Shown: in pieces, positions 28,566 through 45,610 of the stretch
How positions within the stretch are numbered: position 1 is the stretch's first letter
Layout: each line of letters begins with the position of its first letter
DNA from: a virus
Taxonomy: Duplodnaviria; Heunggongvirae; Uroviricota; Caudoviricetes
Direction: 5' to 3' (one strand)
IMG/VR virus record: IMGVR_UViG_2681813233_000007
DNA length: 64,000 nucleotides
The notes under the pieces: generated by a model
Database searches by the model: none
Told to the model about the DNA's origin: nothing
What the model saw: only the letters and a program-made list of their open reading frames with translations
Position numbers and translations under genes: made by a program

Positions 28566-28758
28566 GTCATTCACTCCGTTTAATTTTTAATCTAATGCCA
28601 GCAAATGAAGCTGGCCCCCGCATAAAGATTAATGAAAGTCACTTGTCACCAGTGAGGGGATTTATGAACCACATCCCCCTGAACTGGTGGCCTGTCTGTT
28701 TCTCGCATTTCACACCCTGCATACAGTTTCCCCCAGGTTATGACTGAGAGGCTTTGTT

Positions 28759-32176: not shown

Positions 32177-32980
32177 TTGAGGATGCTTATGGGCCGTTTT
32201 GACGAATGGTTTGCTGACGATGCAAACCTGGCAAGTAAGGAGTCAGAACATGACAGCACGCAGAGAGAAACGCCAGCGCCGATTGAAGCGAATGCAGGAG
32301 GCGCGCCGGAACATGGCAATACCGGTTCGGATTCATTCAGCATTCTGGAAGAGCAACCCGCCGCCAAAGCTGATAGCCATGATAATTTTGCTGATAGCAA
32401 CGGTGGCCTTACTCCGGATGCTGGCGAATCAGATATAGCCATACTTCCATCTTCCCTGGCTGGCAGAGAACCGACTCCACAGTTAAAAGCACGCTATAAC
32501 GGGCATAAAGCCTTTAACGACCAAATCCGCGCAGACTGGATGCTGATTATTGAATCCAGCCCAGACGCGTTTCAGGCTCTCTTATATCGACCAGATGTTG
32601 GCACATATGGGGTAGTCAGCGACGAAACAGGAGAAGAGTCATTCACTGAACTGGATAACAACCAACGCGAACTGACTTACCAGGAACCTGAAATCGTTTA
32701 TGTGCTGGATAACCCTGACGGGCGTGACTCTTTCCATGCGATTGACGCAGACGGTGAGCAGGATGGCTTAACCGATGATGTTCTGATTCTGCGTATTGCA
32801 GCAAATAACGTCCCCGTCGGCTCAATTCTTGAATGGAATGAAGAGATGGTAAACGGCGTAGCGCGCCGCTGGTGGTACGTGCACCGTATTTTTAGCTACG
32901 GCACACAGCATGTTGGTTCGCTTTACTACTGCATACCTGCCAGGAATTTTGATACGACTCAAAACGGAGTGATCGAATGA
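32177..32980 (+). CDS. hypothetical acidic protein
   Basis: ORF track; first gene of a 4-gene plus-strand operon. Confidence 0.5.
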   Translation: MRMLMGRFDEWFADDANLASKESEHDSTQRETPAPIEANAGGAPEHGNTGSDSFSILEEQPAAKADSHDNFADSNGGLTPDAGESDIAILPSSLAGREPTPQLKARYNGHKAFNDQIRADWMLIIESSPDAFQALLYRPDVGTYGVVSDETGEESFTELDNNQRELTYQEPEIVYVLDNPDGRDSFHAIDADGEQDGLTDDVLILRIAANNVPVGSILEWNEEMVNGVARRWWYVHRIFSYGTQHVGSLYYCIPARNFDTTQNGVIE

Positions 32981-33744
32981 CTTCAAATAAAACCCTCCTG
33001 GCGCGAACAGGTGAATGGCAAACCTCACGCACAGGAAAATTCCAGACCACGGGCTTTGAAAACGTGGATAACGCGTTTGCGACGCTAATCAGCAACATTT
33101 TTTCTGATATCTTACTGGTGGCCCCCGCGCCGGAAGAAAAACGCTTTGCGTCATTCCTGAATCGTCCACCAGCAGAGCGTGTCTATGTGGCCCGTTTCGA
33201 CAATGCGATCGAGTTTCTTAAAGCAGTTCGTCGCGCAAATGCCGGGCAAGGGAGAAAACCTGAAAACCAGAACATTAACCGGGATGCTCTCCCCCTGGTC
33301 AATATCTCACGCACTATGGATATCAATTATATCAACGATGATCAGCAGATTGACCGCAAAAAAGTAGCCAGTTTTTGCGAACCGGATACCGGAATGCCTT
33401 TAGCAGAACTGGAATACACCCAGGCCATTCTGACGTATGACGTTACGTTAATGGCAACTGATAAAGCGACCATGAGTCTGATGTGTAATTCGCTGGGCGC
33501 ACGGCTTCGCCTGATGACAGGTACACAATTTGAAGCAACCACTCACCTTGTTCGTGTCCCGGTCCCGCTGATTTGCTCGATACAGGATGCCAAAGAAGTC
33601 GGCTTTACGGATGTTTCAGCACCAATTGGAGAAGAGCGTATTTATGCCACACAAGCGCCGATAAGTGTGATTGCAGACGTGATCACAACATGGGAGTTGG
33701 ACGCAAAACGTATTATTACCGAAACCTCGATATCTATGGGGTGA
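32977..33744 (+). CDS. hypothetical protein
   Basis: ORF track. Confidence 0.5.
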   Translation: MTSNKTLLARTGEWQTSRTGKFQTTGFENVDNAFATLISNIFSDILLVAPAPEEKRFASFLNRPPAERVYVARFDNAIEFLKAVRRANAGQGRKPENQNINRDALPLVNISRTMDINYINDDQQIDRKKVASFCEPDTGMPLAELEYTQAILTYDVTLMATDKATMSLMCNSLGARLRLMTGTQFEATTHLVRVPVPLICSIQDAKEVGFTDVSAPIGEERIYATQAPISVIADVITTWELDAKRIITETSISMG

Positions 33745-33747
33745 TAA

Positions 33748-34728
33748 GTGGCCCAGGAGTTACAACAATATTTTCTACAGTCAGTGCTCATTAACGATAA
33801 CAAAGTGCCACGAGACTGGATTTTTACCGCAGTATATGTAGAAAAAACCAGCCTCAAAGCCCCTTTGCTAAAACTGGAAATTCATGACGCTACCGGCACC
33901 GTAATTGATGACTGGAAAGCCAAATACGGTGCATCGCTGGTGGCTGAAATGGGCGATCCAAACGGTAATGCAGGCACTTTTAAAACAGATTTCTTTGTTA
34001 CGTCTGCAATGCTGGCTGGTGATGTTGTTACCGTTATTGCTGTCAGTGAAGACGTGCGCAGGTTTAAGATCCCCTCCCCGCGCACAAATTTACATACCAA
34101 CAAAACACCAGACGCTATATTCAAGGCATATTCCGGCAAACTTAAAATTACCAGCAGCGTGCTAAAACGCGCAGTTACATATCATCTGAATGCCGGTGAC
34201 AAACCGTCAAAAATGCTTTCTGAGATAGCGCGAGACAAAGGTGCATTGTGTTGGGTATGTCGGGGGGAATTTAACTTTTACACCCTGGCTGATCTGATGA
34301 AGCAAACGCCATCATTTACCTACGAGGGGAATAACCCTAAAGCAGAATACACTTTGTCAAAAATGCGCCTACTCCAACAGGAACATGCGACAACAGCAAA
34401 GAATCAATATCGTTTTGTTGGGTATTCCATGACCGATGGCTACGTCGAATATGGCGATAGCTCACTCCCAGTGCGTTATATATCCGACTCTGATATGGAA
34501 ACTCTTCGCAATATGCAGCTGTCTCTCGTCCCCAAAATGGATATAGAAGTCGCAGGCAATCCTGATATAAAACCGGGGATGGTGATAGAGATTATCGTAT
34601 ACCGCTATGACCAGGAAAACCGCATTGATGAATCAATGCCCCGTAAGCTGATAGTAAAAAATGTTGCGCACTTTGAAGACCGCGTAGGCTACACAACACG
34701 AATGATATTGGGAGTGCCGAACAAATGA
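33748..34728 (+). CDS. hypothetical protein (possible baseplate hub component)
   Basis: ORF track; precedes spike-like gene. Confidence 0.45.
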   Translation: MAQELQQYFLQSVLINDNKVPRDWIFTAVYVEKTSLKAPLLKLEIHDATGTVIDDWKAKYGASLVAEMGDPNGNAGTFKTDFFVTSAMLAGDVVTVIAVSEDVRRFKIPSPRTNLHTNKTPDAIFKAYSGKLKITSSVLKRAVTYHLNAGDKPSKMLSEIARDKGALCWVCRGEFNFYTLADLMKQTPSFTYEGNNPKAEYTLSKMRLLQQEHATTAKNQYRFVGYSMTDGYVEYGDSSLPVRYISDSDMETLRNMQLSLVPKMDIEVAGNPDIKPGMVIEIIVYRYDQENRIDESMPRKLIVKNVAHFEDRVGYTTRMILGVPNK

Positions 34729-35378
34729 AGCGTAGAGCGCAAATTGTTGGAACTGTGCACCCGGCAGGGCTTATGCGTGCTCAAGTCCGTGTTTTACCTG
34801 ACTGGAATGGCGTTCCTGATGACGATCTACCCTGGGCGGAATACCTGTTACCCATCGGAAACGCTTTTGTACCCACAGTCAAAGGTGACCTGGTTTGGGT
34901 AGAGTTTCCTTATTTAGATGTTAACGGTCGAATAGACACCAGACGCCCAATGATAGTTGGTGCCGCTCAGGATGCACCGGGAGGAATTCCAAACGTTGCA
35001 CCAGAAGCATCTGGCAAAGGCAACGGCTGGACGCCGCCGGAAGTAGATGGAGCACCTCCCCGCCCCCAAATCTCAGCAACGAAAGACTTCGTTATTCACC
35101 GCAACAATATTCTTGAAGTACGAACTGCTGGTGGCGGCTATGAAATTGCCAATACGGCAGCAGGCTCAAGGATTGGCATGAATGAGTCCGGGCAGATATA
35201 TATCATTGGTCCGGCTGATGTAATCGTGAATGCAGGAGGGAGTGTTAACGTCAAATCAGCCAACAACATCAATGTTAAAGGGGAAAATATTGCTGTCACC
35301 GCTAACGGAGACATAGCTTTCAAGGCAGGAGGAACCTTTCAGGCCACTGCTAGCAACTTCGATTTCAAGAAAGGATAG
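34725..35378 (+). CDS. baseplate central spike-like protein (gpV-like OB fold plus beta-helix repeats)
   Basis: N-terminal VGTVHPAGLMRAQVRV...GDLVWVEF; C-terminal VNAGGSVNVKSANNINVKGENIAVTANGDIAFKAGG repeats. Confidence 0.5.
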   Translation: MKRRAQIVGTVHPAGLMRAQVRVLPDWNGVPDDDLPWAEYLLPIGNAFVPTVKGDLVWVEFPYLDVNGRIDTRRPMIVGAAQDAPGGIPNVAPEASGKGNGWTPPEVDGAPPRPQISATKDFVIHRNNILEVRTAGGGYEIANTAAGSRIGMNESGQIYIIGPADVIVNAGGSVNVKSANNINVKGENIAVTANGDIAFKAGGTFQATASNFDFKKG

Positions 35379-35437
35379 AAAATGCACCAGTTTGTGTTAG
35401 ATAATTAATATGTATTTTCTAACACAAATGGTGAGAC

Positions 35438-36343
35438 ATGAGATCAGTCGCTTTCAAAAATATCTTCATCTATCGTCTTTCACGCGAAGTTAGCTGGGAT
35501 ACTGCAGAAGTAAATGCAGCCCTTAGCAAGTTTGTGTTTACCCCATGCGGTTCTCAGGATATGGCTAAAGCTGGTTGGACCCCCGTTCTTGGCGACAACC
35601 TCACCCATGAATACCAGGGTTTTCTTCTGATACAGCATAAACGAGAGGAAAAAATCCTACCCTCTCAAGTGCTCAAAGAAGAGTTACAGAAAAAAATCCT
35701 GACACTTGAAGAAGAGCAAGACAGAAAGCTGAAGAAGACTGAAAAAGATTCGCTGAAGGATGAAGTGCTTCACTCTCTTCTTCCTCGTGCTTTCACGAGA
35801 AAATCAGTCGCTAAAATCCTGATAGACCGAAGCAATCATCTGGTTTTTGTCGAGGCCAGCAGTGCTAAAAAAGCAGAGGATCAGCTGGCTTTGTTACGGA
35901 AATCGCTTGGCAGCTTGCCCGTTGTCCCCTTCTCTCCGAAAGACCCATTAGAACTGACCATCACTGGCTGGATTAAAAATGGCTTCCCGAACGGTTTCCG
36001 TGCCGGTGAGGAAGCGACCTTAAAAGCATTGCTTGATGATGGCGGCGCGGTCCGCTGCAAAAAAGTGGACCTGCTATCCGACGAGATCATGAGTCATATA
36101 GAAGCTGGTAAGGTTGCAACCACAGTTGCGGTTAACTGGCAAGACCGTGCATTTTTCAGACTGAATGACGATATGAGTATCAAGGCTTTGTCGTTCAGCG
36201 ACGAATTGTACGACCAGAACGACGATATTGATCGAGAGGATGTTGCGCAACGATTTGACGCTGACTTTATCCTATTTACTGCTGAATTATCAGCGATGTT
36301 CACCTCGCTAGTGGAGGCCGTTGGTGGTGAAGCAGAACGTTAA
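35438..36343 (+). CDS. hrdC: RdgC-family recombination-associated protein (HrdC)
   Basis: Alignable with E. coli RdgC end to end (YRLSRE...[49 protein letters not shown]). Confidence 0.85.
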
Positions 36344-38615
36344 CCTTCGATATGGTTCAGTTTGCAGTGGAATTGAAGCCGCGAGCATTGCCTGGGAACC
36401 GTTGGGTATGCGTCCGGCGTGGTTTGCTGAAATTGAGCCTTTTCCATCTGCCGTTCTTGCGCACCGCTGGCCTCATGTCGCCAACCTTGGCGATATGACA
36501 AAACTTGCCAAAAAAGTCCTGGCTGGGGAAATCGAATCCCCTGATGTGCTCGTCGGGGGAACACCTTGTCAGGCATTCAGTATCGCGGGATTACGTGGTG
36601 GGCTTGATGATGAGCGTGGCGCGCTAACTTTAAAGTATGTGGAGCTTGCAAATGCAATTGACGACAAACGGGCTGAGTCATTTCTCAAACCAGCCGTTAT
36701 CGTCTGGGAAAATGTCCCAGGAGTCTTGTCATCGGCAGATAACGCCTTCGGATGTTTCCTTGCCGGATTGGCTGGAGAAGATGCGCCATTTGAACCAGGT
36801 GATCGACCTGAATCAGGAAAAAGTAACACGTTCTGGCGGTGGGATGGCAAAACCGGTTGCCATGCTCCAAAGTGGCCGCAGTGTGGTTGTATTTATGGAC
36901 CGCAGCGAAAAGTGGCCTGGAGAATCCTTGATGCCCAATACTTCGGAGTGGCACAACGACGCCGACGCGTGTTTGTTGTCGCAAGTGCTCGAACAGACCT
37001 CGATCCCGCAACGGTACTTTTTGAGTTCGAAGGCGTGCGCCGGAATATTGCGCCGAGCCGAAAAAAGAAGGAAATCGCTTCCGCCATTATTGCAAATGGC
37101 GCTGCAATCAGTGGCGAAAGCCTAAATCCATGCCTACACGCTGACATGCCACCCGGTATGAAATCGACGAAAGCCGTAAACGCTTTCAGGATGGCAGCAT
37201 TTGGGGAATATATTGACGATGAAACCGCATCGACAGTAAAGGCAAGAGATTTTAAAGATGCCACTGACCTTGCCGTTTTTAGCAGCACAGGAGCAGGTTT
37301 TTGGTCAGAAGGGCATGGTACATTGCGGGCACGTGAGCAAGAAAGCCATGAGCATCTTGTTACATTGGCTTTTCCTGAGCGTATGAGCGGTACACAACAT
37401 GCTGCAACTAAGAATACTTCACCATCTCTAATGGCTAAAAATCCAACAGCTGTTTGCTATGAAGTAAGAAACGCAGAAGTAGCTGTCCGCCGTCTTACCC
37501 CTGTCGAATGTGAAAGGCTGCAAGGTTTTCCTGAGGGGCATACGTTGATCCCGACGGAAAAGCGTAAAAAAGTTTCTTCAGATGAACTGGCATACCTTCG
37601 CAATCACTATCCAGATTTAAGCGAAGAAGAGGCCGCGATGCTTGCAGCTGACGGACCGCGTTACAAAGCGATCGGCAACAGCATGGCAGTTCCTGTTATG
37701 CAATGGATAGGGTGTCGCATTCTTGCGACCGTAGCGGATAAACAGCAAAAAACAATAAATACCATTACCTACACAAGAAAACTCCGGACTCCGGATGAAT
37801 ATGAACGCCCAATATTCAAATGGGTAGGCGGTAAATTCTCAGAGTTGCCTACAGTGCTTGAGCATCTACCACACGGCAAGCGGTTAATAGAACCATTCGT
37901 TGGTGGCGGTTCCGTATTTACGAATGCAGGATTTCGCCACAACCTGCTTAATGATATTAACGGTGACCTGATTAACTTCTATCAGACATTGCAGCGAGAG
38001 GGACATTCGCTCGTCACGCTGGCATATAGTTTTTTCAAAAATTACAACAACGCTGACGCTTACCTCGAAGTGCGTGAGGCATTTAACAGAGGAAAGTATG
38101 ACCAACTACATCATGCTGCTGCCTTTTTGTACCTTAATCGGCACTGTTTTAATGGCGTAACGCGGTACAACCAAAATGGCGAGTTCAACGTAGGGTATGG
38201 CAAATACAAAGCGCCCTACTTCCCACATGCAGAGATGGAGGCATTTTTGGCTGATGACGTACTCAAAAACACTTCCTTTGTATCAGGTGACTTTGCTAGC
38301 GTCATTGAGGCGGCTGGTGAAGACGATGTGATTTTTTGTGATCCGCCGTATGAACCGCTTCCGGATACAGAGGGATTTACCAGCTATTCAGGAAATAGCT
38401 TCCGTTTCGACGAACAGAAACGGCTTGTATCACTGTTGGTGGATGCCCACCAGCGCGGCGCTAAGGTAGTGATAACAAATAGTGGTGCTCCAAACATCCG
38501 TGAACTATATGAAGGAAACGGGTTTAAAGTACATCATATGGCAGCCAGACGGTCGGTTTCCTGCAAGGCGTCAACACGTGTAGTTGCTAACGATATAATT
38601 GCAATAATGAAGTAA
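36321..38615 (+). CDS. dmt: bifunctional DNA methyltransferase: C5-cytosine MTase fused to Dam-like N6-adenine MTase
   Basis: N-terminal [12 protein letters not shown] and WENVPGV; C-terminal FVGGGSVF and DPPY; 764 aa as in P1 Dmt. Confidence 0.9.
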
Positions 38616-38646
38616 AAAACGCCGCAGTAGCGGCGTTTACTTTTTC
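38616..38646 (-). terminator. rho-independent terminator of glnS (bidirectional hairpin)
   Basis: CGCCGC-AGTA-GCGGCG flanked by A-run/T-run. Confidence 0.55.
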
Positions 38647-38663
38647 ATGTGGCGAAATACCTA

Positions 38664-40325
38664 TTAACCTAACTTCGCCCAGGTATCACGCAGCCCAACG
38701 GTGCGGTTAAATACCGGTTTTTCCGCCGTAGAATGGCGGCTGTCGAGGCAGAAATAACCTTCACGCTCAAACTGGAATGCTTTACCCGCTACCGCTTCTT
38801 TCAGCGACGGTTCAGCAAAGCCCTGTTTGATCACCAGCGATTCCGGGTTAATCACCGACAGGAAATCATCCGCAGCACCTGGGTTCGGCACGTTGAACAG
38901 ACGATCGTACAGGCGGATTTCAACCGGCAGCGCATGTGCCGCGCTCACCCAGTGAATAACGCCTTTCACTTTACGACCATCTGCCGGATCTTTGCTTAAG
39001 GTGTCGGCGTCATAAGTACAGAAGATGGTGGTGATATTGCCTTCGGCATCTTTCTCCACGCGTTCAGCCTTAATGACGTAAGCATTACGCAGACGCACTT
39101 CTTTACCCAGCACCAGACGTTTGTACTGCTTGTTAGCTTCTTCGCGGAAATCGGCGCGGTCGATCCAAATCTCACCGCTAAACGGCACCTGACGGCTACC
39201 CATTTCCGGTTTGTTTGGATGGTTCGGCATGGTGACCATTTCGCCTTCGCCCTGGTAGTTTTCGATAACCAGTTTCACCGGATCGATAACCGCCATTGCG
39301 CGCGGGGCATTTTCGTTGAGATCTTCACGGATGCAGGATTCCAGCGACGCCATCTCAATGGTGTTGTCCTGCTTGGTCACGCCGATGCGTTTGCAGAACT
39401 CACGAATAGAAGCCGCAGTGTAACCACGACGACGCAGACCGGAAATGGTCGGCATACGCGGGTCATCCCAGCCTTCAACGTGCTTGTCGGTCACCAGCAG
39501 GTTCAGCTTACGCTTGGACATCACGGTGTATTCCAGATTCAGGCGCGAGAATTCGTACTGGCGCGGGTGAACAGGAATGGTGATGTTGTCCAGTACCCAG
39601 TCATACAGACGACGGTTGTCCTGGAACTCAAGCGTACACAGAGAGTGCGTAATACCTTCCAGCGCATCGCTGATGCAGTGGGTGAAGTCGTACATCGGGT
39701 AGATGCACCACTTGTTGCCAGTCTGGTGGTGTTCAGCAAACTTAATACGGTACAGCACCGGGTCGCGCATCACGATAAACGGCGAAGCCATGTCGATTTT
39801 CGCACGCAGGCAGGCTTTACCTTCTTCAAAACCACCGGCACGCATTTTTTCGAACAGCGCCAGGTTCTCTTCAACGCTGCGGTCGCGGTACGGGCTGTTT
39901 TTACCCGGCTGCGTCAGGGTGCCGCGGTATTCGCGGATCTGTTCCGGCGTCAGTTCGTCAACATACGCCAGGCCTTTGTTGATCAGTTCAACAGCATAGG
40001 CATGGAGTTTGTCAAAATAATCGGAGGAGTAACGGATGTTGCCAGACCAGTGAAAACCTAACCATTCAACGTCGTTTTTAATCGACTCAACGTACTCGAT
40101 ATCTTCTTTTACCGGGTTAGTGTCGTCGAAACGCAGGTTGCACTGGCCTTTATAGTCCTGGGCGATCCCGAAGTTCAGGCAGATAGATTTCGCATGACCA
40201 ATATGCAGATAGCCATTCGGTTCCGGCGGGAAACGGGTATGTACTGTGGTGTGCTTACCACTGGCCAGATCTTCATCGATGATCTGACGAATAAAGTTAG
40301 TCGGGCGGGCTTCTGCCTCACTCAT
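38664..40325 (-). CDS. glnS: glutaminyl-tRNA synthetase
   Basis: 553 aa; HIGH motif (LHIGHAKS), KMSKS-type VMSKRK; N-terminus [24 protein letters not shown] recognised as enterobacterial GlnS. Confidence 0.95.
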
Positions 40326-40593
40326 TGTGGATTCCTCAAAGCGTAAACAACGTATAACAGCGTATGATCTTATAAGCCGAATAGGCTGACAACCACTAGT
40401 TGATTAGAAATTGCTTTCTATCGTTATTTCAATAATGAGCTTTTTCATGAAGCCCACTTTTGCGCATAAGTAAATTAATGATAAATGGCACACAATTGGA
40501 ACCAAAAAGGATGTAAAGGTGCACCAAATTAGTGGTGTATTGGTACACCTTTGGTTCAAGACTTTTTAAGTTCTAAAACCAACCTGAAAGACT

Positions 40594-40881
40594 TTATTTT
40601 GCTTCCTCAGACTCCGCTAACATGAGGATAGCATGGCGGATCATATTCAATTTGCTGCGATTATGCTTTTTACTTAACGCATCAAGTACTTGGTACTCGT
40701 ATTCATTGAAACCAACACGAATAGATTTAAAATCACGTGGAGCGTCCTTATCGAGCACTTTGTTGTCTTCTGGTTGCTCACCCGGCACCAAATCAGCCTT
40801 ACTGGCAAAATCCTCAATTCGGCGTTCAAGATCGGGGTCTTTTACTTCGGGGGCTTTTACCGATTTACGAGGCTTAATCAC
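40594..40881 (-). CDS. small RHH centromere-binding protein (ParG-like)
   Basis: C-terminal ribbon-helix-helix; 8-nt overlap with upstream ParA gene. Confidence 0.55.
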   Translation of the reverse strand: MIKPRKSVKAPEVKDPDLERRIEDFASKADLVPGEQPEDNKVLDKDAPRDFKSIRVGFNEYEYQVLDALSKKHNRSKLNMIRHAILMLAESEEAK

Positions 40882-41545
40882 TTAATAACTCCTTAACCAA
40901 CATCTGGATTTCACCTTTAGCTTTCCCGTTGTCCATCTCAACAACGCCCTTCCCTTCAGCCATGCAATCGCGGTAAACCTTACGATCACGAATGATGGTT
41001 TTCAGCAACTTCAGTTGCGGATATTCAGCTAGGTACTCTTTGGCCTCATTGGTTTCATTCACAACCGGATTGGATGGGGCCATTGTTAAGACTGCGAACG
41101 CCTTAATGCTAGGATTAGGCATCAGGTCCAAAGCCTCTTCAAACACTTCAACAAAGTGTGCCAGCGTGTCTAAATCTGGTTGAGATGGTCTGAATGGGAC
41201 CAACACAATATCTGCAGCGGTTATGCCTGTACGCATCTCTTTGCTATCGCGCCCGGCTGTATCAACAACTACAAATTCATAACGCTTATCCAGATCGAGA
41301 AGTGTTTCTCGAATATTACCAAACTTCTGGACACAATGAATTACAGGAGAAACCTCTGCCGTGTTACGGTCAGCTGCCCAGCGGGCAGCTGTTCCTTGCT
41401 TGTCTGCATCTAGTAACACTACATCCTTATTTGCGCGGGCAAGCTCCGCACAGATGTTTACGCTTGTGGTTGATTTTCCACAGCCACCTTTTTGGCTGAC
41501 TACCAATATAATCATATCCGTTCCTCGGTGTGATTTTGGTATCAA
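40874..41545 (-). CDS. ParA-family partition ATPase (small type Ib, ParF-like)
   Basis: Deviant Walker A SQKGGCGKST; 223 aa. Confidence 0.8.
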   Translation of the reverse strand: MIPKSHRGTDMIILVVSQKGGCGKSTTSVNICAELARANKDVVLLDADKQGTAARWAADRNTAEVSPVIHCVQKFGNIRETLLDLDKRYEFVVVDTAGRDSKEMRTGITAADIVLVPFRPSQPDLDTLAHFVEVFEEALDLMPNPSIKAFAVLTMAPSNPVVNETNEAKEYLAEYPQLKLLKTIIRDRKVYRDCMAEGKGVVEMDNGKAKGEIQMLVKELLSD

Positions 41546-41757
41546 AACGGTTCCAGATAAGAGCCTTTTTGATGCGGGACAGGCTCTATAATGGAGTCAT
41601 GAATGTTTGGCAAAGTATAACATCAATCAGACCAAATACACCTTATATTGCATCCTATTTAACACGAAATCAGCCCTAAATTGGAACCAGATACAAAATT
41701 GCACCATAACAGCACCTAACCGGTGCCAGATTAACACTAATTAGACACCATTAAGGC

Positions 41758-41783
41758 ATAAAAAAGGCTGCAATTTGCAGCCT
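41758..41783 (-). terminator. hairpin downstream of parR
   Basis: AGGCTGCAA/TTGCAGCCT with T-run on minus strand. Confidence 0.4.
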
Positions 41784-41802
41784 TAAACCAGCACATCTTC
41801 TG

Positions 41803-42147
41803 TCAATCAGGTAGAGAGTCAGCCAGATTGCGCGCCGACGCGCTTTTGGCAACAACTTGCTCCTTCACTGGCTCAATGGAGGCAGGGCGCTCCTCAACCG
41901 CAGCTGGTAGTTCCAGGAAGGATGCCAGCATTTTTCGGATCAGCTCCGGGTTATTGTCTTCGGTCAGCAGGGAAGCCAGTAATCCTGGAAGCCTGCTATC
42001 GACTTCTCCCAGCGCAAGCCCTGCCAACAATGCGGTTCTTGCCATATCGCTATGTTTTTTTATCTTCTCGCTCGCCGCCTTTTCATTGGCATAAGCCTCT
42101 GGGCGAAGATAAATCATCACTTTCTTACGTTCCTGAGACATGGACAT
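41803..42147 (-). CDS. parR: ParR-like centromere-binding protein
   Basis: Small protein directly downstream of parM; AALLAGLALGE region resembles ParR/StbB. Confidence 0.6.
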   Translation of the reverse strand: MSMSQERKKVMIYLRPEAYANEKAASEKIKKHSDMARTALLAGLALGEVDSRLPGLLASLLTEDNNPELIRKMLASFLELPAAVEERPASIEPVKEQVVAKSASARNLADSLPD

Positions 42148-42154
42148 TACCTCG

Positions 42155-43135
42155 TTAACCGATTGCTTTCAGGCCATGAACAAGAGCAAGTTGCGGGTCA
42201 TCCGCCACGAAGAAACGGTCATCACGAATATTAACTTGCTCGCGAATTGCATCTGCCACCAGCGGTGCGCCACCACCGATCACCATGACATGCGTATATC
42301 CTTTAAAGTCGCCAATCACATCAAGAACTCGGGTACGCAGACGGTCAATGCTTGCGGCAATGGCCTTTTTCACATCACCAATCGCTGATGGGTCATTGAT
42401 ATTGTCGTTCAGATAATCTTCATCGTGGCGGTTAATAATGAGCTGATCAACATTGTAATTTGACGTTTCGGTATTGGCCCTTGCAAGTGCTTGCCTTACT
42501 TCCCTGGTGACCAGTGATACACCAAGATTCGAATCGCCAAAAACACGGGAAACTGCCGTCATTTGCCCAGCGACCATTGAAACATCAAGGGTAGTTCCAC
42601 CCAAATCGACGATAAGAACAGAATGGACAGGGTTCAGATTGTCGCACAGGCCAATTCCTGCCGGAATAGACTCCGGTCGTACCGTAACTTTCTTAATCGT
42701 GAACACATTGCCTTTATTCAGCGTGACGGGGCGCATAAGGCTGGCTTTCTTGCGCTCGATGTTATCGAGATTGTATTGCGCGTCGTCGTCGTAAAACTCC
42801 GCCAGAGGCAGCGTGACCACAATTTCTACTTCCTGCGGCTCAATACCGCTTGTCAGCAGGGCATGGTGAACAGCCAGGACGTTAAGCGGGCTGTATTGCC
42901 ATTCCACGTTATTCGTCGGCAGAACATCTGGCGAGATCAAATCATACGAATACTTCTCGTCGTCAATGACATAGTTAAACGGCTTGCCAGCACCAAATGT
43001 TGCTGACCATCCGCGCTTAAAGCTGTTAGGACTGATGTGAGTGCGAGTTTCCCCGTCGTGCTCCCACAGCATTTTGATATTGGTTGAACCATCATCGATA
43101 AAAATGCGCATCTTCTTGCTCCACTTCTGAGACAC
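42155..43135 (-). CDS. parM: ParM/StbA actin-like segregation ATPase
   Basis: IFIDDGSTNIKM, HISPNSF, LIVDLGGTTLD, VMVIGGGA motifs; 326 aa. Confidence 0.85.
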   Translation of the reverse strand: MSQKWSKKMRIFIDDGSTNIKMLWEHDGETRTHISPNSFKRGWSATFGAGKPFNYVIDDEKYSYDLISPDVLPTNNVEWQYSPLNVLAVHHALLTSGIEPQEVEIVVTLPLAEFYDDDAQYNLDNIERKKASLMRPVTLNKGNVFTIKKVTVRPESIPAGIGLCDNLNPVHSVLIVDLGGTTLDVSMVAGQMTAVSRVFGDSNLGVSLVTREVRQALARANTETSNYNVDQLIINRHDEDYLNDNINDPSAIGDVKKAIAASIDRLRTRVLDVIGDFKGYTHVMVIGGGAPLVADAIREQVNIRDDRFFVADDPQLALVHGLKAIG

Positions 43136-43137
43136 AT

Positions 43138-43310
43138 TTGAGAATCAAAATGTAATTTTAAAAGAGAAGCACCCAAAAATCCACACCAAACGAGACAAAA
43201 AAGAGCACTTGTTGAGTTTATTTTGAGAATATCTTAATCACCCACTGAATGATGGCCTGATAGTGAGATTTATTTGAGAATGAATTGAGAATACAAAAAT
43301 ATTCTGAAAT
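43138..43310. repeat. parC-like centromere repeats upstream of parM
   Basis: TTGAGAAT at 43138, 43223, 43274, 43285 plus inverted ATTCTGA. Confidence 0.4.
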
Positions 43311-43377
43311 TTAACTCTCCGTTTGAATGACGAAATAACAAAGTGATGACAATAGGAGGATAACCAGGAGGTGAAGA

Positions 43378-43662
43378 ATGAGCGCAATAGCCACCAGCGA
43401 CACCCTTTGTTCTGGTCACGGAGGATTTCCGCCGCGACTGGTAGCTGAAACCGTTCCCTGGTTCACCGTTAACGGTAAGCCAGTTGTTGTAGATGGTGCC
43501 ATGTTTCCCAGTCACACTGACGGTAACAGTGCACACCCAGGGGCAGCTGTATCGACGCGAGTATGGTTTTCGATAGGTGGAAAGGGAGTTGTCTGTGTAG
43601 GCGATCCGCTTTCTTGTGGTTCTGTTATCGCCAACGGCGAGGATATTTTTCAGGTTGCATAA
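43378..43662 (+). CDS. PAAR-like spike-tip protein
   Basis: 94 aa; CSGHGG ... VNGKPVVVDGAM ... IGGKGVVCVGDPLSCGSVI. Confidence 0.5.
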   Translation: MSAIATSDTLCSGHGGFPPRLVAETVPWFTVNGKPVVVDGAMFPSHTDGNSAHPGAAVSTRVWFSIGGKGVVCVGDPLSCGSVIANGEDIFQVA

Positions 43663-44468
43663 TGCTTGATTCAATAGGTGAAGTTAAAGCCTTCAAAATT
43701 CTGTCAGATGCCGGTATCTCTACACCAGAATCTATAACCATAAGCCGGGCAGCTTCTGTAAAAGCCTCATCGCTCGCCAGCGCCATACAGGGAATAGTTC
43801 ACGCCGATAAAACCTATCCTGATTCTGTTTCGGCCTGGACTACTCAATTGCTTGGCTTTTCTGAACAGCTCAATGAGGCCAGCAAAGCGTCTTCATTACT
43901 GGCTGATTCTCTTTCCCCATACACCAAGCCATCAGAGTTGTTACAGATGAAGATTGGCTGGGAATGCTACGCAAAAGGTAACGAGCTGACCCCCATACCT
44001 GCTTTCGCCCTTGTTGAGGGAATGGGGAATGTTTCCATTCCGCAATCTCTAACGGACGCATTGACGGCGCTAAAACTTGATGCTCTGAAAACCGCCATGA
44101 ACGCCATTAACGCAAAAATTGAAGCTGCCGGAAGTGCTGGTGGTGGTGAAAGCAATGGTGGACAGGGTGGTGCTGGGGGCGCTCAGGCTCCAGTCATTAC
44201 TCAGGATGAAATTGATGCTTTACGGGAAGCAGTGACAGCCGCCGAAGTTTTACTCTCCGAAATTAACTCAGCAAGTGAGGGTGTCGTAGCCCTTACAGGT
44301 CGCATTAAAACGTCAACCACTCAGGCAACCAAAGGTTTAGAGAACGCTGTCGCCATCACGTTAACTGGTTCTCTACTGGATGATGCAGTAATGAGTCCGG
44401 CAATCAGTTTAATCATGCCACAAGGCGTTATCGATGCGCTCCAAAAGAACACCAAAAAGGAATCATAG
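43662..44468 (+). CDS. hypothetical protein coupled to PAAR-like gene
   Basis: Start set at ATG overlapping upstream stop (TAATG); Gly/Ala-rich linker. Confidence 0.5.
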   Translation: MLDSIGEVKAFKILSDAGISTPESITISRAASVKASSLASAIQGIVHADKTYPDSVSAWTTQLLGFSEQLNEASKASSLLADSLSPYTKPSELLQMKIGWECYAKGNELTPIPAFALVEGMGNVSIPQSLTDALTALKLDALKTAMNAINAKIEAAGSAGGGESNGGQGGAGGAQAPVITQDEIDALREAVTAAEVLLSEINSASEGVVALTGRIKTSTTQATKGLENAVAITLTGSLLDDAVMSPAISLIMPQGVIDALQKNTKKES

Positions 44469-44524
44469 AAGCACCACTTAGGCACACAAAAGGATGTAAA
44501 TTGGTACATGTTTAACACCAAAAA

Positions 44525-44998
44525 ATGAACCTGGAGAGGATGGTTTTGAAAAAGATAATTTTGATTGTAATTGCGCTTTTAGCCATTTCTGGAATTTACC
44601 GAACAACGACGGCAGTTATCGAACACATCAGGTATGTCCGATCGCTTGAAGACTCAAAATCACAACTGGAAAGCACGAACAACACGCTTTCTACCGCATT
44701 ACAGTTAAGTGAGAACGCTCGCTCAGCCATGCTGACCGAAAACGAAAGAATTAAAGCACTGGAAAAGGAGTACCAGCGCAAAACAGCAGAACTGAATGCC
44801 AACCTAATCAAACAACGAGAGGAAAGCCAGAATGAAATCACTCGCCTTGAAAATGCGTTACGCCGTGCTGGGATTAACGATGTGCGTGTGCCTGATGACG
44901 TTATCAGGATGCAGCGGGAACGGGCAAAAGCCATCAACCAGCGTGCCAGTGAAAATTACCGTAGAAGCCACCAGCAAGCCGCAGGCAAATCTGATTGA
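44525..44998 (+). CDS. Rz-like inner-membrane spanin
   Basis: N-terminal TM helix then coiled-coil; out-of-frame lipoprotein ORF overlaps its 3' end. Confidence 0.55.
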   Translation: MNLERMVLKKIILIVIALLAISGIYRTTTAVIEHIRYVRSLEDSKSQLESTNNTLSTALQLSENARSAMLTENERIKALEKEYQRKTAELNANLIKQREESQNEITRLENALRRAGINDVRVPDDVIRMQRERAKAINQRASENYRRSHQQAAGKSD

Positions 44999-45164
44999 TT
45001 ACTCCCCTTGTTTAGTGCCAGAGGACACGCCAGTGCTGTTAAACAAGTATCCGACATACGCTGAACAGTTATTCAGCACGATCGACGAATGCAACCAACG
45101 AAACGCACTGAATAACCAAAGAAACAGGGAGATTTGGGAAGGGAAGGGGGATCAAGGCTCCTGA
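44853..45164 (+). CDS. Rz1-like outer-membrane lipoprotein spanin (overlapping frame)
   Basis: Lipobox LMTLSGC; start taken at internal ATG 44853. Confidence 0.45.
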   Translation: MRYAVLGLTMCVCLMTLSGCSGNGQKPSTSVPVKITVEATSKPQANLIDYSPCLVPEDTPVLLNKYPTYAEQLFSTIDECNQRNALNNQRNREIWEGKGDQGS

Positions 45165-45610
45165 AGCCAGATGTCCTGGCTGTCAGCTTCTTCGAAACCG
45201 TGACAGACGTTAAAGTCACTCAAGCGATACTGACGCTGACGGCCTCTATTTCGCTCATGCCAATGCATATATCCACCAGCAAATGCCAGCGGACAATCAC
45301 TATAGTCTATGTAACCAATACCATTCCCCAAACGTGCTTCGCGCGCACCGGCTTTCCAGGACAGTAGAAAAGAGTCACGATCCGCCAGCATAACAACAAA
45401 ATCGTCCGGATCTCCGATACAGTGAAGAATACCTGCCTTACATAACTGCTTGAGCGCTTTGGACTGGCTCAGGATGTCTTCTCCGTAATACTGAAAACAA
45501 TCATCAACAACAGCGGGATAGCCTGCCGGGGGATTCAGGCTGGTTGGTATAGCTGACGCGATCGCCAGCATTAAGCGATATTGTGTTTTTGATGGGTTAA
45601 CGTGACTCAT
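45152..45610 (-). CDS. hypothetical protein
   Basis: ORF track. Confidence 0.5.
   Translation of the reverse strand: MSHVNPSKTQYRLMLAIASAIPTSLNPPAGYPAVVDDCFQYYGEDILSQSKALKQLCKAGILHCIGDPDDFVVMLADRDSFLLSWKAGAREARLGNGIGYIDYSDCPLAFAGGYMHWHERNRGRQRQYRLSDFNVCHGFEEADSQDIWLQEP

Follow-up and report, generated by a model that had tools for sequence, protein, structure and literature searches.

The window, by which we mean the whole 64,000-nucleotide stretch of viral DNA that was analyzed, is ~97-99% identical at the nucleotide level to Escherichia phage D6 (NC_050154), a P1-like phage-plasmid. An initial sequence-only reading had proposed two adjacent genes, and both were found as described, on the plus strand, with ATG starts, and coding for proteins of 94 and 268 amino acids (43378..43662 and 43662..44468, respectively). 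On the basis of homology, fold and metal site, the first encodes a spike-tip protein of PAAR fold, with P1 UpfC, D6 orf57 and T4 gp5.4 as orthologues. The second encodes a soluble, all-alpha protein of the UpfB family (D6 orf56; a homologue of the P1 UpfB 'tripod'), as supported by phrog_1559 and by homology to P1 and P7. The last A of the TAA stop codon (43660-43662) is also the first base of the following ATG (43662-43664), so that the genes overlap by 1 nt in the pentanucleotide TAATG (43660..43664, plus strand, read directly from the sequence), and translation of the tip and UpfB genes is probably coupled through this stop/start overlap. A strong ribosome-binding site (GGAGG) is present 5' of 43378. 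Both genes are under purifying selection (NG86 dN/dS of ~0.045 for the 94-aa and ~0.18 for the 268-aa gene) and are therefore real coding genes. Protein distances are ~1.7-fold larger for UpfB than for UpfC.

The pair heads a four-gene array on the same strand, with an Rz/Rz1-type spanin pair at its end. The third gene (44525..44998, plus strand, start codon uncertain) encodes an Rz-like i-spanin with N-terminal membrane anchor (phrog_214, E=1e-15; phrog_89, E=2e-7), the translation of which has a hydrophobic N-terminus (...KKIILIVIALLAISGIY). In another frame, it is overlapped by the gene for an Rz1-like o-spanin (44832..45164, plus strand; phrog_456, E=1.2e-5) with the lipobox LSGC (...CLMTLSGCSGN). 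With anchor, overlap and lipobox, the region 44525-45164 has the hallmarks of a two-component Rz/Rz1 spanin system, and a role in lysis is predicted from the sequence. The P1 counterparts, ppfA and mlp, are also predicted spanins (PMC9025707). The four-gene module recurs with 100% identity in E. coli plasmids such as CP057047.

As first described, the pair lies beside partition genes. Pfam and PHROG matches identify ParM/StbA (42155-43135), a StbB-like protein (41803-42147) and a ParA-like protein (40874-41545) directly upstream, all encoded on the strand opposite to the pair. This neighbourhood is an ancestral or insertional trait of the phage-plasmid group, and not a functional link to the pair.

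Between parM and the tip gene lies a divergent intergenic region (43136..43377) in which a repeat scan detected TGAGnnnnATTTGAGAAT repeats. The repeat family extends from 43128 to 43292 and thus starts inside the coding end of parM. The tip operon must have its promoter within 43136-43377. Scans of 43000-45400 for sigma-70 promoters and terminators gave no more matches than shuffled sequence, and the single sigma-70-like match at 43274-43303 was not above chance. The P1 late promoter motif AAGTGACTT-N4-TANNNT, which we took from the P7 annotation, was not found upstream of 43378, and its sole perfect site in the window is at 28626-28644 (minus strand). We also considered the ATTTGAGAAT repeats as operators of a C1-type repressor spread over the genome, and rejected this possibility, as the motif is local to the 43136-43377 region and not enriched elsewhere in the window. 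Because they are confined to one region, the repeats are more likely a putative parC-like centromere or promoter for ParM/ParR.

Tip protein and central spike

The 94-aa protein had been read as a PAAR spike tip, and this is borne out by its sequence, its predicted fold, a conserved metal site and a solved orthologue. It passes the Pfam threshold for the PAAR motif only marginally (PF05488, 27.2 bits, cutoff 27.0), and it matches phrog_281 with E=8e-29. In phmmer searches it was related to P1 UpfC (PDB 9vyi_A, E=1.4e-35) and to T4 gp5.4 (E=1.4e-5). The AlphaFold2 model consists of strands throughout (pLDDT 94.4). Lack of the PAAR fold had been named as an outcome that would speak against the assignment; the fold is present, with Foldseek TM scores of the AlphaFold2 model between 0.86 and 0.96, namely 0.96 for P1 UpfC (9vyi), 0.92 for T4 gp5.4 (4ku0_D), and 0.88 and 0.86 for the type VI secretion system (T6SS) PAAR proteins 4jiv_D (Vibrio VCA0105) and 4jiw_D. 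In P1, the prediction of the tip protein dates from 2022 and its structure from 2025-26.

Residues H14, H46, H53 and C80 were invariant among the 31 homologues compared, and line up with the conserved GH, H, H and SCG of T4 gp5.4. The tip protein thus carries a conserved predicted metal site of three histidines and one cysteine. In T4 gp5.4 the site also comprises 3 His and 1 Cys, and binding to the spike is abolished by the H14A exchange (PMC12407873). Many homologues of the tip protein are named 'alanine racemase' by NCBI.

It is extremely improbable that the PAAR protein has nothing to do with the tail and is instead a 'moron' or host-takeover product, or indeed an alanine racemase. The category of phrog_281 ('moron, auxiliary metabolic gene and host takeover'), the enzyme name of so many NCBI homologues and the 8 kb between the gene and the baseplate genes would all fit with it. 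However, in the solved P1 baseplate the orthologue occupies the tip of the spike, and this structure and the fold match already refute such a reading. An all-beta cone of 94 aa is incompatible with an alanine racemase, and the distance to the spike gene is accounted for by an inserted block.

The gene for the central spike is found at 34725..35378 on the plus strand. [quoted passage not shown] The sequence-only reading had referred to a 'gpV-like spike' at 34725, remote from the tip gene. The spike gene is real, but the label is only loosely apt, since the protein resembles gp5 of P1 and T4. We found no HxH apex motif in the C-terminus of the spike protein, in keeping with a spike whose tip is supplied separately (PMC12407873).

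The 8.0 kb between the spike and tip genes (35379..43377) are taken up by genes for hrdC-like, dmt, GlnRS, Arc-like, ParA-like, StbB-like and ParM products. In a distant relative (L044), the genes for hub, spike, PAAR protein and UpfB follow one another without interruption and are colinear with window positions 32977-35378 plus 43378-44468. An inserted accessory/partition block of 8 kb is a simple account of why the tip gene is remote from the spike gene in the window.

Partner of the UpfB family

The 268-aa protein had been called Gly/Ala-rich. This holds for alanine (14.6%, followed by Ser 11.2%, Leu 10.4% and Gly 8.6%), but glycine is enriched only in a stretch of ~24 residues (~153-176), the core of which (160-173) is predicted to be disordered. 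The protein matches phrog_1559 over residues 1-265 (E=2e-110). With tblastn, it is 27% identical to P1/P7 UpfB over 98% of its length (E ~1e-7), and a family profile found P7 UpfB (E=8e-45). The P1-type representative P0100 was also among the database hits of the family (E=1.3e-35). By sequence, then, it is a diverged full-length homologue of UpfB. The family had only 73 representatives in 1.84 billion proteins, with nearly all full-length hits at 240-265 aa. A scan of genome contigs gave only one locus, in Citrobacter sp. NCU1.

In the AlphaFold2 model (pLDDT 82.6), which is entirely helical, an N-terminal helical domain is followed by the Gly-rich, disordered hinge (160-173), a long heptad-patterned helix (181-238) and two short helices. 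The heptad periodicity of the long helix was reached by only 2 of 2000 shuffles. We considered that UpfB might be a transmembrane or secreted protein and ruled this out, as there was no transmembrane segment (maximal KD(19) 1.39) and no signal peptide. The predicted heptad pattern, together with the lack of transmembrane segment and signal peptide, fits an oligomeric soluble appendage, and the predicted hinge fits the poor cryo-EM resolution in P1.

The best BFVD Foldseek matches of the UpfB model were to DUF7217 proteins of Ackermannviridae (TM 0.45-0.54). We rejected a relationship as generic helical similarity. The DUF7217 gene of CBA120 (orf171) was unrelated to the UpfB profiles (hhalign probability 0.15%); a search of the first 100 kb of CBA120 revealed no PAAR-like ORF, and its DUF7217 gene does not adjoin the spike gene.

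We also weighed a T6SS-like PAAR-plus-cargo arrangement, with the 268-aa protein as an ejected effector that acts as an enzyme or toxin in the periplasm or cytoplasm, and consider it very unlikely. The order of the genes, PAAR first and partner second, is reminiscent of PAAR-effector pairs in T6SS, anything carried on the tip would of necessity reach the envelope before the rest of the virion, and the ~1.7-fold faster evolution of UpfB compared to UpfC is of a kind frequent in proteins that interact with the host. However, the dN/dS of 0.18 indicates purifying and not diversifying selection. There was no Pfam, PADLOC-independent or PDB sequence match of the 268-aa protein to an enzyme, toxin or T6SS adaptor family. 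Specifically, Pfam contains no family for the protein and shows no DUF1795/Eag, DUF4123, DUF2169, effector or toxin domain in it; weak Pfam matches across 24 family members include no effector or adaptor family, and the PDB sequence search returned only Gly-linker artefacts. Nor was there a significant fold match, as the search of the PDB with the model yielded nothing beyond helical proteins of the BAR-domain and chemoreceptor-like kinds (TM <0.3). The context is phage and plasmid only: T6SS genes (VgrG, Hcp, TssBC etc.) are not present, and the pair is surrounded by genes for phage tail, capsid, spanins and plasmid partition. Finally, the stoichiometry reported for P1 (three trimers, i.e. 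9 UpfB per tip) would suggest a structural appendage rather than T6SS-type cargo.

Linkage across relatives and proposed location of the pair

In all 40 related loci, the 94-aa PAAR gene was found directly upstream of the UpfB gene and on the same strand. The genes overlap by 1 nt (TAATG or TGATG) in 37 of these loci and are separated by gaps of 1-9 nt in the other 3. Most of the loci have the spanin pair after the UpfB gene. We also inspected seven distant loci. A PAAR gene was upstream of the UpfB-like gene in five of them (called at just 58 aa in one case), while the sixth locus duplicates that one and the contig of the seventh begins too near the UpfB-like gene to tell. Where there was an upstream PAAR gene, the UpfB gene was either adjacent or followed after 4-5 small genes. 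At least two of the distant loci have the order hub-spike-PAAR, followed by UpfB either immediately or after a few small genes, and in five the array goes on to major-capsid and sheath genes. Some distant relatives have the UpfB gene in a late structural array without identified spanin genes alongside. The 40/40 linkage of PAAR and UpfB genes, the usual spanin followers and the contiguity with the spike in distant relatives are new here, as is the contrast with the window, where the 8-kb block intervenes.

For P1, the partner was named the 'tripod' in 2026. According to cryo-EM of that year, the P1 spike consists of a gp5 trimer and a UpfC monomer, and UpfB forms three trimers, the 'tripod', anchored on the tip (PMC12810830). 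The tripod was assigned by fitting an AlphaFold3 UpfB trimer into density of medium resolution, and is not a built model (PMC12810830); the authors found that the predicted trimer fits tip density that is otherwise unexplained (PMC12810830). LC-MS/MS of P1 virions identified 23 structural proteins, and UpfB is not named in the main text of that study including Table 1; the same analysis also missed UpfC, gp5, gp26 and PmgA (PMC9024508). A second study of the P1 baseplate does not mention UpfB. Knock-downs and in-frame deletions of P1 upfB and upfC were without plaque phenotype.

These data bear on the earlier suggestion that the partner is associated with the tip, which is supported indirectly by the UpfB homology, the P1 tripod and the gene linkage, and weakened by the medium resolution behind the tripod and by the absence of UpfB from the main text of the P1 proteomic report. 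They also bear on a reading in which the 268-aa protein is not in the virion, and is instead a cytoplasmic assembly factor or chaperone of the tip, or an envelope or lysis accessory co-expressed with PAAR protein and spanins. We consider this rather unlikely. It would be in line with the reported P1 virion proteome, in which UpfB is absent (PMC9024508), with the tripod being a predicted model fitted to medium-resolution density, with the single same-strand array that UpfB shares with the spanin pair, with translational coupling as is typical of chaperone-client pairs, and with the lack of a known deletion phenotype in P1. Yet the proteomic analysis in question missed proven baseplate proteins, including UpfC and gp5, and the predicted UpfB trimer is reported to fit the otherwise unexplained tip density. 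Distant relatives have UpfB inside an array of the type hub-spike-PAAR-...-UpfB-capsid-sheath, in some cases without spanin neighbours, and the size of the protein and its long heptad-bearing helix suit a fibrous appendage. The structural basis for assigning UpfB to the spike module is weak and at odds with the P1 proteomics; strict linkage to the PAAR gene and contiguity with the spike in distant relatives add independent genomic support.

Together, we think it likely that the pair is what upfC-upfB of P1 has become in the D6 lineage, or its equivalent there, and encodes a tail spike tip and a tip-mounted appendage. By analogy with the orthologues, from which virion location, stoichiometry and penetration role of both proteins are extrapolated, one metal-stabilised copy of the 94-aa PAAR-fold protein would cap the blunt end of the trimeric gp5-like spike (34725-35378) and sharpen it for penetration of the outer membrane on sheath contraction. 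The 268-aa protein, made from the mRNA of the tip gene through the 1-nt stop/start overlap, would oligomerise and dock on the tip protein, in the P1 model as three trimers that form the 'tripod'. Laboratory hosts can probably be infected without either protein, as in P1, and, as for T4 gp5.4, the two would matter for efficiency or on envelope-altered hosts.

More speculatively, UpfB-type proteins might be an unrecognised, lineage-wide class of tip appendages. They might be the leading part of the virion in contacting or destabilising the outer membrane. Their evolution is faster than that of the tip (as in the 1.7-fold larger protein distance), and they might determine how efficiently natural hosts are penetrated, or which hosts these are. 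In the P1 and D6 lineages, they and the spanins might form a single 'envelope-crossing' transcription unit for entry and exit. We hold this only tentatively; if true, the role of the appendage in host range would parallel that of T4 gp5.4 on truncated-LPS hosts. The discovery value of the locus itself is small, as the window nearly copies D6 and >100 sequenced phage-plasmids of E. coli, Salmonella and Shigella. The assignments are of use for annotation, since many database records name the tip 'alanine racemase' and the partner and spanins 'hypothetical'.

Comparison with known systems

The window is in essence a variant of D6, with orf57 and orf56 of D6 being 98-99% identical to the window proteins and flanked by the same neighbours. 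In the D6 annotation the pair is 'similar to P1 upfC and upfB', orf56 is without function and the spanin genes are hypothetical. The window has a P1-like bifunctional dmt, whereas D6 has two shorter methyltransferase genes instead.

P1 UpfC and UpfB (9vyi/9vzk) are encoded in the same order and are of the same size classes (94 aa and ~260 aa) as the proteins of the window pair. In both cases a predicted spanin pair comes next, and plasmid-maintenance genes and gene 23 adjoin. The P1 and window tips are 56% identical (TM 0.96), the UpfB proteins only ~27%. The genes overlap by 1 nt in the D6 type; in P7 they are 8 nt apart, and the spacer contains a GGAG of its own. In the window the plasmid module is upstream and of ParM type, whereas P1 has RepA/ParAB downstream. 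Solved structures and proteomics come from P1; the D6 lineage is described here from sequence and predicted structure.

T4 gp5.4 (4KU0, 5IV5) is a monomeric PAAR-fold tip with a 3-His/1-Cys site that caps the trimeric gp5 beta-helix (PMC12407873). It shares ~24-26% identity with the tip protein of the window, is non-essential for plaque formation, and is reported to matter on hosts with truncated LPS. Unlike the window pair, T4 has no described UpfB-like partner, and T4 gp5 has a lysozyme domain that is missing from the P1/D6 spike.

In the T6SS PAAR proteins (VCA0105, 4JIV; c1882, 4JIW), a cone of the same fold likewise sits on a beta-helical spike (TM 0.86-0.88). They have the idea of a tip with a load in common with the window pair, which belongs to a phage virion and has, in P1, a multi-copy partner. 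In the P2 gpV-type spike, the HxH iron apex is part of the spike polypeptide, whereas the tip in the window is the product of a separate gene; both serve the same task, to end the central spike in a sharp point that is stabilised by metal.

A PAAR-fold protein as the spike tip

Both ORFs proposed in the sequence-only reading are present on the same strand, exactly as placed there: a tip gene (43378-43662, +, ATG start, 94 aa) and a UpfB-family gene (43662-44468, +, ATG start, 268 aa). The interpretation of the first product as a PAAR-like spike tip holds. Its match to Pfam PAAR_motif is marginal (27.2 bits versus a cutoff of 27.0); the solved P1 UpfC chain 9vyi_A was matched with E=1.4e-35, and T4 gp5.4 (5iv5, 4ku0) with E ~1e-5. 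The PAAR fold, on which the sequence-only reading had staked its claim, emerges from AlphaFold2 modelling with 31 homologues (pLDDT 94.4); the model superposes on P1 UpfC (TM 0.96), T4 gp5.4 (TM 0.92) and the T6SS PAAR proteins VCA0105 (TM 0.88) and c1882 (TM 0.86). Residues H14, H46, H53 and C80, invariant among the 31 homologues, align with the 3-His/1-Cys metal-site residues of T4 gp5.4, in which the H14A substitution abolishes spike binding (PMC12407873). The tip gene has a dN/dS of ~0.045.

The gp5-like spike gene (34725-35378) matches P1 Gp5 (9vzk_q, E=6.5e-56), and a C-terminal HxH apex motif, the mark of spikes needing no separate tip (PMC12407873), was not found in its product. We regard the 94-aa protein as almost certainly the spike tip. 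In many GenBank/NCBI records, including those of plasmids with 100% identity over 43378-45164, this protein is named "alanine racemase", a propagated misannotation.

The UpfB-family partner

The partner matches phrog_1559 end to end (E=2e-110) and aligns with P1/P7 UpfB at ~27% identity over 98% of its length; a profile from 24 D6-type family members matches P7 UpfB with E=8e-45. By these matches, the 268-aa protein is classed as a diverged UpfB. Searches with the partner returned no Pfam family, no relative among PDB sequences and, for its model, no significant PDB fold match. DUF7217 proteins of Ackermannviridae, a Foldseek hint, were ruled out by profile comparison and by the gene context in CBA120. 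When 1.84 billion representative proteins were searched exhaustively with the profile, only 73 matched, nearly all full-length ones being 240-265 aa; the UpfB family is therefore small and of a single architecture. UpfB protein distances are ~1.7x those of the tip protein, and in 98% of pairs it is UpfB that has diverged further.

In its AlphaFold2 model (pLDDT 82.6, pTM 0.74) the partner is entirely helical: residues 1-158 make up an N-terminal domain, next comes a disordered Gly-rich hinge (160-173) that differs in length between family members, and a 58-residue helix (181-238) then leads into two short ones. The heptad hydrophobic pattern of the long helix was equalled by only 2 of 2000 shuffles, and no transmembrane segment was found in the protein. 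Family conservation peaks at LLQMKIGWECYAKGN (92-106) and at the C-terminal NAVAITLT...AIS.IMP.GVIDAL. The partner had been described as Gly/Ala-rich; alanine stands, in an Ala/Ser/Leu-rich composition, and glycine richness is confined to the hinge.

Evidence on where UpfB resides comes from P1. A 2026 cryo-EM study built UpfC as a monomer atop the gp5 trimer and described UpfB as "a novel three-trimeric tripod" anchored on the tip, based on an AlphaFold3 trimer fitted into a medium-resolution map; a membrane-piercing role is the authors' speculation (PMC12810830). A second baseplate study modelled UpfC at the needle tip and did not mention UpfB. LC-MS/MS of P1 virions did not detect UpfC, and UpfB is missing from the main text and virion table of that study (PMC9024508). 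The negative proteomics agrees with UpfB acting outside the virion, as an assembly or envelope-related accessory protein; we consider this main rival rather improbable, and somewhat favour a partner mounted on the tip.

The suggestion of a tip-associated partner is plausibly right; its description as ejected cargo is unsupported. A T6SS-style effector is very unlikely, given that the partner has no effector or adaptor domain, is under purifying selection (dN/dS ~0.18) and has no T6SS context. In the preferred arrangement, a single PAAR-fold copy would cap and sharpen the gp5-like spike, and the co-translated helical partner would oligomerise via its heptad helix and attach to the tip, forming a flexible appendage; upon sheath contraction, this assembly would lead the tube through the outer membrane. 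Taken as a whole, the reading of a PAAR cap with a tip-mounted UpfB is likely.

Genomic setting of the module

The last base of the tip-gene stop codon TAA (43660-43662) is also the first of the partner ATG (TAATG). The tip gene has a strong GGAGG ribosome-binding site in front of it, and the partner has only a weak AGG, within the final codons of the tip gene, which makes translational coupling of the pair plausible. We compared 40 related loci (D6, P7, Cronobacter phage JK004, 36 IMG/VR contigs and one Citrobacter contig). The 94-aa PAAR gene lies directly 5' of the UpfB gene in all 40, with a 1-nt stop/start overlap in 37 and gaps of 1-9 nt in the other three. In every case the module is flanked by plasmid-maintenance genes on one side and the major capsid gene on the other: the D6 type has ParM upstream of it, the P1 type RepA downstream.

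The partner gene is followed by genes for a 157-aa Rz-like i-spanin with an N-terminal membrane anchor (44525-44998, +) and an overlapping 110-aa Rz1-type lipoprotein with an LSGC lipobox (44832-45164, +), both hypothetical in the D6 annotation; two reverse-strand genes and a gene-23-type major capsid gene (46178) come next. Since most related loci likewise have an Rz/Rz1-like pair after UpfB, tail-tip and outer-membrane lysis genes appear to form one transcription unit, a curious pairing of entry and exit. In P1, ppfA and mlp, which follow upfB, are regarded as unverified spanins in an operon apart from the other lysis genes (PMC9025707).

Among the 1.84 billion representatives, the profile also picked up more distant UpfB-like proteins, at library-wide E-values between 1e-9 and 1e-4. 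On one such metagenomic contig, hub, spike, PAAR and UpfB genes are contiguous and colinear with 32977-35378 plus 43378-44468 of the window (spike 35% identical, E=1e-38). Another has the order hub, two further genes (300 and 260 aa), PAAR, UpfB, capsid, sheath; three have PAAR, 4-5 small genes, UpfB, capsid, sheath, with PAAR called as only 58 aa in one of them; a further contig begins too near the UpfB gene to reveal upstream genes. This gene order therefore places UpfB, as judged from synteny, in the late tail and capsid structural array. At the distant loci L043, L045 and L047/L048, small genes between the PAAR and UpfB-like genes include those for a RyR-domain protein and an N6/N4 methyltransferase, and the interval looks like a gene-insertion hotspot inside the tip module.

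The tip gene was correctly noted to lie far from the spike gene and beside partition genes. The 8.0-kb gap (35379-43377) holds hrdC-like, dmt, GlnRS, Arc-like, ParA-like, StbB-like and ParM genes, and probably reflects the insertion of a block of accessory and plasmid-maintenance genes. Two distinct partition systems adjoin there (40594-43135, -), directly upstream of the tip gene and divergent from it: an actin-type ParM/StbA (42155-43135, -) with a StbB-like ParR (41803-42147, -), and a small ParA-like Walker ATPase (40874-41545, -) with a 95-aa Arc-like protein (phrog_3431, weak match) encoded ahead of it. This arrangement differs from the ParAB system of P1. The glutaminyl-tRNA synthetase gene (38664-40325, -) is complete, as is its D6 counterpart orf62 in place; its 553-aa product has both the class I E/Q catalytic domain and the anticodon-binding domain (E=6e-130). 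The bifunctional methyltransferase gene (36321-38615, +; 764 aa, N-terminal C5-cytosine and C-terminal D12 N6-adenine domains) shares ~87% nucleotide identity with dmt of P1-group phages. In D6 its place is taken by two shorter methyltransferase genes, which makes the gene a mosaic difference from D6.

Four copies of TGAGnnnnATTTGAGAAT (43128-43292) and an inverted repeat (43214-43235/43296-43317) lie between parM and the tip gene. These elements occur nowhere else in the window, and the ATTTGAGAAT intergenic repeats are likewise local to this region. They probably serve as a parC-like centromere, or as a promoter region to which ParR binds, and may also influence transcription of the tip operon. 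Promoter and terminator scans around the tip genes were uninformative, and no P1 late-promoter motif was found upstream of the tip gene. The P1 pattern AAGTGACTT-N4-TANNNT has a single perfect match in the 64-kb window (28626-28644, -); late genes elsewhere, such as the capsid gene, have none, so the D6 lineage may differ from P1 in how late promoters are recognised.

Relation to D6 and P1

The tip region is 98.7% identical to Escherichia phage D6 over 2.2 kb, and a 20-kb query 97.3% identical with 92% covered. D6 is a P1-related phage-plasmid whose orf57 and orf56 are annotated "similar to P1 upfC" and "similar to P1 upfB". The four-gene stretch 43378-45164 is present in 121 PLSDB plasmids (98 from E. 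coli, 17 from Salmonella and 6 from Shigella), at 100% identity in some E. coli plasmids; the records listed measure 78-95 kb, and non-mobilizable plasmids make up 119 of the 121.

UpfC had been predicted as a T4 gp5.4-like spike tip in P1, and its deletion left plaquing unaffected (Gonzales et al. 2022, PMC9024508). The constructs of that study include an in-frame upfB deletion, and only five other mutants were defective (PMC9024508); by CRISPRi, upfB and upfC are both non-essential (PMC10695390). What remains of interest is the role of the tripod and the disagreement of proteomics with cryo-EM over UpfB. As a system the pair is of low novelty, having been described before in P1 and carrying a similarity-based annotation in D6.
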